A stretch of DNA of 64,000 bases. It comes from an uncultured delta proteobacterium (lineage in GTDB: Bacteria > Myxococcota > Myxococcia > Myxococcales > Anaeromyxobacteraceae). The notes under the pieces are model-generated. The model was not told the origin of the DNA. It worked only from the letters and a program-made list of their open reading frames with translations, and made no database searches. A program made the position numbers and the translations under genes. Below, piece by piece: positions 45,642 through 58,390 of the stretch (position 1 is the first letter of the stretch; every line of letters begins with the position of its first letter). Location: the NCBI GenBank assembly GCA_963828255.1, contig CAWHDZ010000031.1, positions 82,659 through 146,658 of the forward strand, given 5' to 3'.

Positions 45642-45737
45642 ATTCGTTCTCAATTCATTTCACATTCGTTTCATATAGAAAACAAAAAGATAACTAGTTC
45701 AGATAATTGACGCCAATCATTTCATTCCTTATTTCAT
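45642..45737 (+). promoter_or_regulatory. AT-rich promoter region with five ATTCRTTTCA-like direct repeats
   Basis: ATTCGTTCTCA/ATTCATTTCAC/ATTCGTTTCAT at 11-nt period (45642-45674). AATCATTTCAT and CTTATTTCAT overlap TTGACG-17-TATTTC (45707-45735). Confidence 0.6.
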
Positions 45738-47049
45738 GTCATGTATGACGGCGGCCAGGGAACTCCTCACCATCCTCGGGACGAAGGGCCCATCAGGCCC
45801 GGCCGCACTTCGCGCCGAGCTCGGGGTCTCTCCGAAGGTGCTCGCAGAGCTCGTCCATGAGGCCGGCGACGAGGTCTTCCGCATCGGAAGGACGCGCGCC
45901 ATTCAGTACGCAAGGACCCGGGCCATCGAGGGGCTCGGACGCACGCTGCCCGTGTTCCGCGTCGACGAGGCGGGCACCGTGGCTTCGGACGGCACGCTCC
46001 GGATGCTCTGGGGCCACCGGACCTTCTGGGACCGCGGCGGATCGGGCACTCTCTTCGAAGGGCTGCCCCCTGCCCTCGTGGACATGGCGCCGCAGGGGTT
46101 CATCGGACGGTCCTTTCCCATCCGGTTCCCGGAACTCCGCCTTCCGTCGAGCATCTCCGACTGGTCGGACGATCACCGGCTCGTCGCGCTGGCCACCCGG
46201 GGCGACGACTGCGTGGGGGATCTCGTCGTTGGCGACGAGTCCCTGCGGCGCTTCGTGAGCCGGAGCCCCGTGGAGGTCGATCAGCGCGACTTCCCCTCCC
46301 TGGCGATCGGTTCGGCATCCGAGGCGGTGGGCTCATCCGCCGGCGGGGAACGCCCCAAGTTCGGCGCGTTCTCCGGAGGCCGGCACGTGCTCGTGAAGTA
46401 CGCACCGCCAGGCGACGGCGGCGCCGTCCGCCGCTGGCGAGACCTGCTCTGGTGCGAGTGGAAGGCCCTCCAGACGGTGGCCGCGGCGGGCCGGCCGGCG
46501 TCCCGCGCGCGGCTCATGGGCGTGGACGGATGGAGGTTCCTCGAGGTCGAGCGATTCGACCGCTTGGGCGCCCGTGGCCGGCGCGCCGTCCTCTCCCTGG
46601 CTGCGCTCGACGTCGAGCACCTGGGCGCTCCCCGCACCTGGACGGAGGCGGCCAGGCTCCTGGAAGCGAAGCCCTTCTCCCTTCCGGCGCAGGACGCGGC
46701 CCACGTTCGATGGCTCGACCTCTTCGGACAGCTCGTCGGCAACACCGACCGTCACTTCGGGAACCTCGGGTTCCTGCCGGCGCCCGACGGCACGCTGCGC
46801 GTCGCGCCGTCCTACGACATGCTCCCCATGATCCTGGCGCCCTCGGGCGACGTCGTGACGCCCCGCTCCTTCGAGCCGGCGGCGCCGGTCGGGGGTTCCG
46901 TGGACGTCTGGCGCGACGCCGCGCGCTGGGCGGAGGGGTTCTGGCGCGAGGTGACGGCCTGCGACGAGCTGGAAGGCGATGTGCGCGCCTTCGCGGGGCG
47001 AGCAGCCGACGCGATCGCCGCGATGGGGCGCCGGCTGGGTCCGGGCTGA
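45736..47049 (+). CDS. YjjJ/HipA-family Ser/Thr kinase toxin with N-terminal HTH
   Basis: N-terminal LRAELGVSP...IGRTRAIQY, DMAPQGFIGR, P-loop GSSAGGERPKF, catalytic GNTDRHFGN and APSYDMLP. The start could be ATG 45745. Confidence 0.88.
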   Translation: MSCMTAARELLTILGTKGPSGPAALRAELGVSPKVLAELVHEAGDEVFRIGRTRAIQYARTRAIEGLGRTLPVFRVDEAGTVASDGTLRMLWGHRTFWDRGGSGTLFEGLPPALVDMAPQGFIGRSFPIRFPELRLPSSISDWSDDHRLVALATRGDDCVGDLVVGDESLRRFVSRSPVEVDQRDFPSLAIGSASEAVGSSAGGERPKFGAFSGGRHVLVKYAPPGDGGAVRRWRDLLWCEWKALQTVAAAGRPASRARLMGVDGWRFLEVERFDRLGARGRRAVLSLAALDVEHLGAPRTWTEAARLLEAKPFSLPAQDAAHVRWLDLFGQLVGNTDRHFGNLGFLPAPDGTLRVAPSYDMLPMILAPSGDVVTPRSFEPAAPVGGSVDVWRDAARWAEGFWREVTACDELEGDVRAFAGRAADAIAAMGRRLGPG

Positions 47050-53620: not shown

Positions 53621-56990
<3,370 letters not shown>

Positions 56991-56994
<4 letters not shown>

Positions 56995-57764
56995 AAGGCG
57001 AAGCCCACCTGCCCCACCGCCGAGGTGGCGCCGAAGGGCGCCCACTCCACGAGGAGGTCGATGCCGAACGGCAGGCTGGCCGCCACGCCGAAGGCCACCT
57101 GCCAGTGGGCCACGTCGGTGCCGGTGACGGAGGCGCCGCCGAGCTGCCAGAAGACCGGACCGCCGAAGACCTTGGCGCCCACGTAGGGGGCGACGATCCC
57201 CGCGATGGACTTCCCCGCGCTCGCCGAGAGGCCGGCGTCGAGGGAGGTGAGCGGGGCCTTCACCCCGCCAGGCCCGGTGGTGTTCACGCCGGAGGCGGCC
57301 AGGCTGGCCGACAGAGCCACGAAGGGCCACGGACCGCTGCCGTCCAGCGCCATCCAGGTCGCGCCGAGTCGCACGAGCCACCCGGGGTCCATCACGTAGG
57401 TGGCCCCGCCGGCGTCGATGCTCCCCGAGATCACGGCGCCCGCGCCGGCGGTCACCGACCAGGCCCGATCGAGCTGCCGGGTGACCGACGCGGCCACGCT
57501 GCGCTGGACGAACGGGGCGCTGACGTCGCCGAAGCGCAGCTCCGATGCCAGCCAGCCGTAGGCGGCGGCCACCCGCCAGACCGGCGCGGGCGCAGTCGCG
57601 GTACCCGCCGGGTCGGCGCCGTCGTCGGCGTCGCACACCCTCCTCGCCATCGCCGTGGGACCCACGGGCGCGGAGACGCCTCAGCCGAAGGCGTCGCGCG
57701 GGAAGGCGAGGGCCAGCGCGGCCACCCCGAGGAGGGCCGCGGTCCGTACCGGGGGGACGCGCAT
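56991..57764 (-). CDS. Outer-membrane beta-barrel protein, candidate selenoprotein (Sec at codon 28, first residue after signal peptide), 257 aa
   Basis: ATG 57764 lies 2 nt after the upstream gene's TAG. MRVPPVRTAALLGVAALALAFPRDAFG-TGA(57683-57681)-GVSAPVGPTAMARRVC continues in frame into ORF 56991..57665, with amphipathic beta-strands and C-terminal GQVGFAF. Confidence 0.75.
57640..57675 (-). promoter_or_regulatory. Candidate bacterial SECIS hairpin for the beta-barrel gene
   Basis: mRNA UGA-GGCGUCUCCGCGC-CCGUGG-GUC-CCACGG-CG. The perfect 6-bp stem spans 57653-57667, with GGUC at positions 22-25 counting U of UGA as 1. Confidence 0.65.
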
Positions 57765-57766
57765 CC

Positions 57767-58390
57767 CTACTTCACCAGGATCTGCGCCTTCACGAGGTCG
57801 GCCACCAGCTGCGCCGACAGCGACTGGGCGGCGCTCTGGGCGTCCTGGACGTTGAAGGTGTTGGACTGGCCGCTCCACACCAGCGACTCGGGGAGGGCGT
57901 GGGTGGAGTAGACGTTGGTCTCGGCGAGCACGTTGGTCTGCTCGGTGATGTAGCCCGGGGAGTAGACCGCGCCGTAGCCGTAGCCGTACGCGCCGTAGTA
58001 GCCGCCGTAATAGGGCGCGGCCGGCACGTAGGTCATGCTGGGCGGCACGTACTCCTCGGTGGTCTTCTTGGTGAGCCGCTGCACGATGACCAGGTCGACC
58101 TTGTTCTCGGCCACGTACTGCTTCACCTTCTCCTTGTCGAGCTGGCCAGGCGGGAAGACGCTGGCCGAGGTGGAGGCCTGGAAGCCCTTGTTGATCAGCG
58201 CCTGGGCGAGGCCGTTCTCGAACTGGACCCGGTACATGTCGTTCGGCATCACCCCGATGATGAAGATGCGGCTCACCGGCTGCGCCCGGTAGTTGGGATC
58301 GCGCCAGGTCTGGACCAGGTTGGTGGTGGTGCAGGAGGAGATCACCAGGACGGCCAGGGCGGGAACGATGGCGCGGAGCAACGTCTTCAT
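57767..58390 (-). CDS. Lipoprotein of unknown function (DUF4136-like)
   Basis: Lipobox ISSC, Tyr/Gly-rich loop YYGGYYGAYGYGYG, and ETNVY...LVWSG. Confidence 0.8.
   Translation of the reverse strand: MKTLLRAIVPALAVLVISSCTTTNLVQTWRDPNYRAQPVSRIFIIGVMPNDMYRVQFENGLAQALINKGFQASTSASVFPPGQLDKEKVKQYVAENKVDLVIVQRLTKKTTEEYVPPSMTYVPAAPYYGGYYGAYGYGYGAVYSPGYITEQTNVLAETNVYSTHALPESLVWSGQSNTFNVQDAQSAAQSLSAQLVADLVKAQILVK

Follow-up and report, generated by a model that had tools for sequence, protein, structure and literature searches.

Predicted selenocysteine at the mature N terminus of a family of small outer-membrane beta-barrel proteins from Myxococcota

INTRODUCTION

When a TGA codon separates a signal peptide from a beta-barrel in the same reading frame, does it terminate a short leader, or does it specify selenocysteine (Sec) as the first residue of an exported protein? 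This question is raised by a locus in the window analyzed here (the whole stretch of DNA, 64,000 nucleotides), for which a first-pass annotation, made from the sequence, had proposed one read-through gene for a previously undescribed selenoprotein. The features of the gene are as follows.

56991 to 57764, minus strand: gene for the candidate barrel selenoprotein, 257 amino acids (aa) with the TGA read as Sec, 230 aa in the predicted mature form
57684 to 57764, minus strand: predicted signal peptide of 27 aa, ending in A-F-G, of the signal peptidase I (SPase I) type and without a lipobox, as judged from the sequence and family statistics
57681 to 57683, minus strand: in-frame TGA, putative Sec28, which would be mature residue 1 (TGA in 72 and TGC or TGT in 32 of 107 distinct genes)
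57633 to 57635, minus strand: Cys44 (mature Cys17), the putative partner of Sec (a second Cys is conserved across the family)
56994 to 57578, minus strand: predicted 10-stranded beta-barrel, residues 63 to 257, with a C-terminal Phe (models with pLDDT of 90 to 98, fold searches, and conservation)

RESULTS

The reading frame and its internal TGA

Translation of positions 57764 to 56991 of the minus strand gives MRVPPVRTAALLGVAALALAFPRDAFG*GVSAPVGPT...GFAF*, an uninterrupted frame of 257 codons except for a single TGA at codon 28 (57683-57681), directly after A-F-G. The first-pass annotation had described the frame correctly in its other details as well: the signal peptide lies in frame upstream of the barrel, its ATG follows the TAG of the preceding gene (57769-57767) by 2 nt, and Cys44 is the only other Cys in the protein. 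A plain open reading frame (ORF) caller starts the gene at GTG 57665, without the signal peptide. Genes of this family are routinely truncated by gene callers; 65 of the 66 database proteins of the window's clade cover no more than 89% of the read-through query and begin 3' of the TGA. The TGA is spanned by contigs from three DNA sequencing runs; 40 of the differences were listed (206 more exist), all of them at other positions. One RNA run covered part of the gene.

Searches for homologs yielded 16 matches in 61 related genomes: 14 full-length genes with TGA, one with GGA (in genome G017), and one fragment. A profile search of 401 genomes of the phylum produced 76 matches, comprising 67 with TGA inside the match (its position was checked for the retrieved loci), 4 that were full-length without TGA, 2 partial, and 3 marginal. 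A further 73 named loci came from the scan of a collection. Genome G215 entered the 401-genome tallies only, and the search of the class of genome G065 covered one genome. Removal of duplicates and of 4 loci whose match did not include the N terminus left 107 distinct genes, with the first mature codon being TGA in 72, TGC in 24, TGT in 8, ACC in 2, and GGA in 1. The TGA forms are present in the Anaeromyxobacteraceae, Myxococcaceae, Polyangiaceae, and Kofleriaceae and in one Krumholzibacteria genome; the family as a whole amounts to 394 representatives at 50% identity, from the Myxococcia, Polyangia, and at least one genome of the Krumholzibacteriota. Representatives of the full-length database proteins (31 in all) carry Cys (28) or Ser (3) at the Sec site. 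The Cys homologs anticipated in the first-pass annotation thus exist, and its expectation of either Cys or TGA at this position held in 104 of the 107 genes; residues of the kind that it had counted against Sec do occur, albeit rarely, with Gly in G017 (TGA replaced by GGA) and Thr in two genes. Since 14 of the 15 full-length homologs from the related genomes, and 72 distinct genes in total, share the TGA at this position, it is neither a chance occurrence nor an error. The comparative data make it very likely that codon 28 is decoded as Sec.

The second Cys follows the site by 11 to 16 residues in 71 of the 72 TGA genes and by 10 to 14 residues in all 32 Cys genes, and exactly one further Cys is present in 95 of 102 mature chains (the figure of 99% obtained from alignment A3 is inflated, because its database rows were partly picked for the second Cys). 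The second Cys is also absent in 4 of the 6 members that lack Sec or Cys at position +1, while G017 and P0115 retain it with the first one absent. L104, a divergent second paralog, begins its mature chain with U-G-C and lacks the Cys at +10 to +16.

Several loci deserve separate mention. In L027, the G017 gene that lost Sec (TGA to GGA), the hairpin described below is still intact and the genome keeps selA. Sec has also been lost in L059 and L060 (G214 and G217), which have Thr and no second Cys in genomes that keep selA; an msrA gene adjoins L059. In L028 (G007:C475), an apparent internal deletion joins the start to the last three strands, representing either a true deletion or a misassembly.

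A SECIS-type hairpin behind the TGA

The first-pass annotation had assumed a selenocysteine insertion element (SECIS) without locating it. A candidate was found downstream of the TGA.

57653 to 57667, minus strand: predicted apical hairpin of the SECIS, CCGUGG-GUC-CCACGG, with -7.9 kcal/mol and its loop 19 nt behind the TGA, at +20 to +22 (57661-57659)

The bacterial (bSECIS) consensus, as given in the Fig. 2 legend of PMC13188914, comprises a loop of 3 to 9 nt with G in one of its first two positions, a stem of 4 to 16 bp, a spacing of 16 to 37 nt, and a minimum free energy of -7.5 or lower. The hairpin in the window, with its 3-nt GUC loop starting with G, 6 bp, a distance of 19 nt, and -7.9 kcal/mol, agrees with it in every respect. 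The GU loop and all 6 stem pairs are present in 70 of the 72 TGA genes versus 1 of the 32 Cys genes; as these genes were themselves the source of the pattern, the count for the TGA genes is partly circular, and the Cys contrast and the genomic background serve as the controls. The only Cys gene with an intact hairpin, L150, comes from a genome in which tRNA-Sec and a partial match to selA are present. In the source genome, the hairpin stands behind just 31 of 70,117 TGA triplets, and among those 31 a long gene-like frame is found only at the two copies of the barrel gene. Compensatory changes are seen at pair 18-24, formed by the third positions of a Val and a Pro codon, which is C-G in 51, G-C in 20, and T-A in 1 of the TGA genes. 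GGT encodes the loop Gly in 71 of the 72 TGA genes and accounts for 8.8% of the other Gly codons in the same genes. Part of the conservation of P-V-G-P-T may be due to the SECIS and not to protein function. The region 3' of the TGA showed no excess folding stability over shuffled sequences (z from -0.58 to +1.27); in DNA with 72% GC, the shuffle folding gave no signal, and only the comparative test is informative.

Co-occurrence with the Sec machinery

The source genome (4.3 Mb, 99% complete, 6.6% contamination) encodes the complete set of Sec genes: selA, selB, and selD, all above the curated cutoffs, and selC (tRNA-Sec, 78 bits); selD itself contains an in-frame TGA. ARAGORN reports a second tRNA-SeC at G000:C30:93412-93504, for which Rfam RF01852 gives no confirmation at E values of 1e-6 or lower.

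The expectation that TGA versions would reside in genomes with the Sec machinery was borne out. In the 401-genome set, selA was found in 64 of the 67 TGA genomes, and the other three have selB and tRNA-Sec. Because selA is present in 305 of the 401 genomes anyway, its co-occurrence within the order is a weak test, and the contrast between Cys and TGA genomes was used instead. It covered 61 of the 73 named loci, namely those that included the site, each counted once: selB was detected in 26 of the 29 genomes with TGA and in 3 of the 32 with Cys, a difference for which no statistical test is claimed, as these genomes are incomplete and related (that is, non-independent samples) and some overlap the earlier set. 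The 3 TGA genomes without a selB match have selA or tRNA-Sec.

The opposite reading, in which the TGA terminates translation or is itself erroneous and the gene is either a pseudogene or encodes a leader of 27 aa followed by a new start at GTG 57665, draws on the database proteins of the window's clade that start 3' of the TGA and on the unremarkable overall stability of the hairpin region, but it is hardly credible given that 72 distinct genes, spread over two phyla and several families, share the codon, that the Cys orthologs are single ORFs with signal peptides, that the SECIS and selB track the TGA, and that a barrel without a signal peptide would not be exportable.

The predicted cleavage site

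All 104 genes with Sec or Cys have an open, hydrophobic leader ahead of the site, in line with the conserved upstream peptide that the first-pass annotation required. Residues typical of SPase I sites at -3 and -1 are found in 103 of these 104 genes (Ala at -3 in 93, Ala or Gly at -1 in 103). This pattern of the leader implies that the Sec or Cys would be the free N terminus. Cleavage after A-x-A/G by SPase I, following the predicted export, can therefore be expected with good confidence to expose an N-terminal amino-selenol. A Sec lipoprotein, in which residue 28 would be lipidated like the Cys of a lipobox, would explain why Sec or Cys directly follows the signal peptide but is highly improbable, as the lipobox [LVI][ASTVIG][GAS] precedes the site in 0 of the 104 genes, the -2 residue is R, K, H, D, E, or Q in 60, and Pro occurs at -8 to -4 in 81.

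The barrel and its nearest folds

Structure models bear out the suggested beta-barrel. AlphaFold2 runs on the mature chain with 122 sequences gave a mean pLDDT of 92 and a pTM of 0.86, with a 10-stranded barrel at 91 to 98 and the N-terminal residues 1 to 30 (the segment from Sec to Cys) at 57 to 67; the precursor was modeled as a barrel as well. The predictions combine the signal peptide with amphipathic strands that close a barrel and an aromatic or hydrophobic C-terminal residue, which is Phe in 85 and Leu in 25 of the 122 alignment rows. Polar residues are well conserved: in alignment A3, Asp176 and Asp217 are invariant, and Tyr194 (98%), His220 (97%), and Gln222 (94%) are nearly so; Glu240 is conserved as well. 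These six residues could hold an N-terminal stopper or form a site.

The best fold match is the designed barrel TMB10 (Z score of 17.3). It is followed by natural 10-stranded barrels, namely OpcA (1k24; Z of 14.6, rmsd of 3.7, 187 aligned residues), the omptins (OmpT, 7xw0/1i78), including pOmpT (Z of 14.5, rmsd of 3.7, 195 aligned residues), and the Legionella Dot/Icm porin I (9nh1; Z of 14.2). As a group, these have Z scores of 14.2 to 14.6 and rmsd values of 3.6 to 4.3 over 183 to 195 residues, at 7 to 10% identity to the barrel selenoprotein. None of them is known to have an N-terminal Sec/Cys pair. A profile search of the PDB sequences returned one unrelated hit (E value of 1.2) and no omptin or other solved enzyme. 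The COG4313 (PF13557) channels are more distant, with a Z score of just 8.5 to 8.8 for 4rl8 and no match to PF13557 in 60 family members at E values up to 0.5; the barrel family differs from them in its U-x10-16-C spacing. Alignments to autotransporter barrels begin at residue 1, a weak hint that the N terminus of the model might lie inside the barrel lumen.

In the ESM Atlas structure search, Myxococcota clusters came first, followed by Chlam_OMP-type clusters at TM scores of 0.76 to 0.77. [quoted passage not shown] The 10 strands, the putative N-terminal periplasmic stopper, and the periplasmic cysteines make this an analogy and not a case of family membership: MOMP is far longer than the barrel selenoprotein, which has only two Sec/Cys residues, and PF01308 (Chlam_OMP) matched 0 of 60 members. 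The fold searches returned no MOMP entry, although a likeness may still exist.

Gene neighborhoods

The barrel gene is flanked by the following two genes.

55687 to 56994, plus strand: convergent (tail-to-tail) gene for a second candidate hidden selenoprotein of 435 aa, with a signal peptide, a thioredoxin fold with W-U-K-T-C (TGA at 55846-55848), and TPR repeats; overlaps the barrel stop codon by 4 nt
57767 to 58390, minus strand: upstream co-oriented gene for a putative 207-aa lipoprotein with a weak match to DUF4136 (E value of 0.011, below the cutoff)

In the thioredoxin-TPR gene, the TGA is present in all 10 genomes where the start fell on the locus and in most of the matches listed from the window's family; in the large sister family the residue is mostly Cys. 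No NCBIfam model reached its cutoff for this protein. A dedicated partnership between it and the barrel was considered and rejected: homologs occur in 268 of the 401 genomes, mostly without the barrel, which marks a general envelope protein. The lipoprotein gene is probably cotranscribed with the barrel gene and adjoins it in the window's clade only.

Among the 651 ORFs that flank the gene at 85 loci, no neighbor is conserved family-wide. Of the 111 nearest neighbors (67 loci), 9 are thiol or peroxide redox proteins, in approximately four clades, with different kinds recurring in separate clades: the seleno-thioredoxin in the window's family, a TlpA-like redoxin, a di-heme protein of the CCP/MauG type, and MsrA. 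At 5 loci of the Kofleriaceae-type clade, the adjoining gene encodes a TlpA-like lipoprotein (divergent at 3, downstream at 2). Genes of the mer, cus, cop, and czc types were absent from the 111 nearest neighbors and from the recurrent clusters of the 651 flanking ORFs; a search of these neighborhoods for a metal-resistance operon gave none. Metal-type matches were scattered: TerC at two places, a MopE motif, a cupredoxin, and a hemerythrin at one each, and one doubtful ArsR.

One subclade, consisting of L145, L147, L150, and L132 and containing a pair of Sec and Cys sisters, is found beside genes for a cysteine synthase-like (PALP) protein and a uroporphyrinogen methyltransferase (siroheme type), with a probable role in sulfur assimilation.

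DISCUSSION

A possible selenium-sulfur redox center

The following sequence of events can be proposed for the barrel protein. SelB, the SECIS, and tRNA-Sec would insert Sec at codon 28; after export, the SPase I cut would leave it as residue 1, and the mature chain would fold into a 10-stranded outer-membrane barrel, as confidently modeled. The N-terminal 30 residues would serve as a lumenal stopper at the periplasmic mouth of the barrel, an arrangement that the model slightly favors. Sec1 would then attack as the nucleophile, and Cys17 would provide the thiol that resolves a reversible Se-S bond, reset by periplasmic thioredoxin-type proteins, and the barrel could act as an envelope redox catalyst or a redox-gated pore. 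If Sec is inserted and the signal peptide cleaved as predicted, the chances of such a redox center, with its resetting and its catalytic or gating role, appear evenly balanced; much the same can be said of the complete picture of a Sec-first barrel with a reversible Sec1-Cys17 center on an N-terminal segment at the periplasmic mouth.

A redox role is favored over metal binding, a structural bond, and acyl transfer because there is a single partner Cys in 95 of 102 chains, because both residues are lost together in 4 of the 6 degenerate members, because redox and not metal genes recur nearby, and because most of the characterized Sec residues are redox active, as stated in PMC13188914. Unlike in the catalytic CxxC motif, the spacing from Sec to Cys is variable (10 to 16).

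The alternative that fares best is a soft-metal site, which the first-pass annotation had named beside a redox function and in which the N-terminal amino-selenol and Cys17 would bind Cu(I), Ag, Hg, or Ni in order to capture or sense metal crossing the barrel. A processed N-terminal metal hook is known from the Ni-containing superoxide dismutase, the Sec/Cys pair comes with a free alpha-amine, and the conserved Asp217, His220, and Glu240 could supply further ligands. Given that the loci lack mer, cus, cop, or czc neighbors and show only scattered matches to metal-type proteins, this function seems rather unlikely.

Alternatively, the bond between Sec (or Cys) and Cys could be purely structural, locking the stopper for folding or cross-linking barrels as in the chlamydial MOMP. 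This would fit the Chlam_OMP-type clusters in the Atlas search, the stopper and cross-linking cysteines described for MOMP in the text of PMC13254160, and the fact that a whole clade manages with Cys. Yet the costly Sec and its SECIS have been kept in 72 genes down to ∼27 to 30% protein identity, for which a static bond would seem to offer little reason, and a structural role is considered improbable.

Slightly less probable still is an outer-membrane enzyme in which the Sec nucleophile, activated by its own amine, would carry out acyl transfer or hydrolysis in a lumen lined by Asp, His, Gln, and Tyr. Such self-activation is familiar from the N-terminal nucleophile (Ntn) hydrolases. The strict +1 position in 104 genes, the conservation of Asp176, Asp217, His220, Tyr194, and Gln222, and the presence of omptin proteases among the nearest natural folds are compatible with this idea; however, there was no sequence match to solved enzymes, and the conserved second Cys better suits a resolving thiol.

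Relation to known selenoproteins

The barrel proteins constitute a real, uncatalogued family that very probably contains Sec in an unusual position. They share with the 119 selenoprotein families of Table 1 in PMC13188914 the in-frame UGA, Cys orthologs, a hairpin conforming to the bSECIS, and co-occurrence with selAB and tRNA-Sec, and differ from the families catalogued there in having Sec at mature position 1, outside a UxxC or CxxU motif. No entry of that table, dated 2026, fits the barrel family, which agrees with the initial impression that it had not been described as a selenoprotein. The outer-membrane selenoproteins listed in PMC13188914 are the GSU2204 family (NF041027, MtrB/PioB type) and a TonB-dependent receptor of the FCYXU type (NF049945). 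They resemble the barrel family in being outer membrane-associated Sec proteins of the former Deltaproteobacteria; the barrel family differs in its small 10-stranded barrel and the absence of a CXXCH or FCYXU motif, and none of the 10 barrel sequences scanned matched either model. No Pfam or NCBIfam family corresponds to the barrel protein, for which there were weak matches to OMP_b-brl in 6 and to Autotransporter in 3 of 60 members. A literature search found no paper on the family, which could be contained in supplementary candidate lists or subscription journals.

Sec and Cys in the evolution of the family

A tree was built from 105 barrel domains, trimmed of the first 30 residues of the mature chain (on account of their length, L021 and L151 were excluded). 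All 31 Cys forms fall into one branch (support of 98/85), which also holds a single Sec form, L145; it has A-H-A-U-G-V-S-T-A-D-G-L-S-A-C at the site, where L150 has the same sequence with C, and the two are identical at 191 of 222 positions. At least three changes are required for the Sec label. Midpoint rooting makes Sec the ancestral state, with a single origin of Cys and one return to Sec; this direction depends on the root, since the tree lacks an outgroup. The change from Sec to Cys is described as rare in bacteria in PMC13188914; compared to the known bacterial selenoproteins, the Cys forms of the barrel family look like one clade among Sec forms. A combined scenario can be offered only tentatively: signal peptidase would unmask Sec as residue 1, the amino-selenol would be a catalytic or gating center inside the barrel, resolved by the single Cys, and the family would be ancestrally Sec-containing, with one Cys clade in lineages losing selB and Sec regained at least once.

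If correct, these predictions would place selenium redox chemistry in the myxobacterial outer membrane and add to the selenoproteome a widespread family that gene callers truncate. Sec as the first residue is chemically distinct, since metal chelation, reaction with carbonyls or thioesters, and action as a self-activated nucleophile are all open to a free amino-selenol. The natural variants with U, C, S, T, and G, together with a compact SECIS with compensatory changes, provide a system in which to test why bacteria employ Sec in the cell envelope and in which direction Sec and Cys have evolved.

Additional observations

The locus is present twice in the source assembly: G000:C32:1-10704 matches the end of C31 at 97.5% identity over 10.7 kb, with an identical barrel gene, and 10 other contig pairs share more than 3 kb at 99% identity or higher. 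This second copy is probably due to assembly redundancy or a strain mixture and not to a true duplication. Elsewhere in the window, a 437-aa ORF (45736 to 47049, plus strand) is inserted with a fatty acid degradation gene on one side and a cluster for a branched-chain ABC transporter on the other; judging by eye, we take it to resemble a HipA-like kinase of the YjjJ type.
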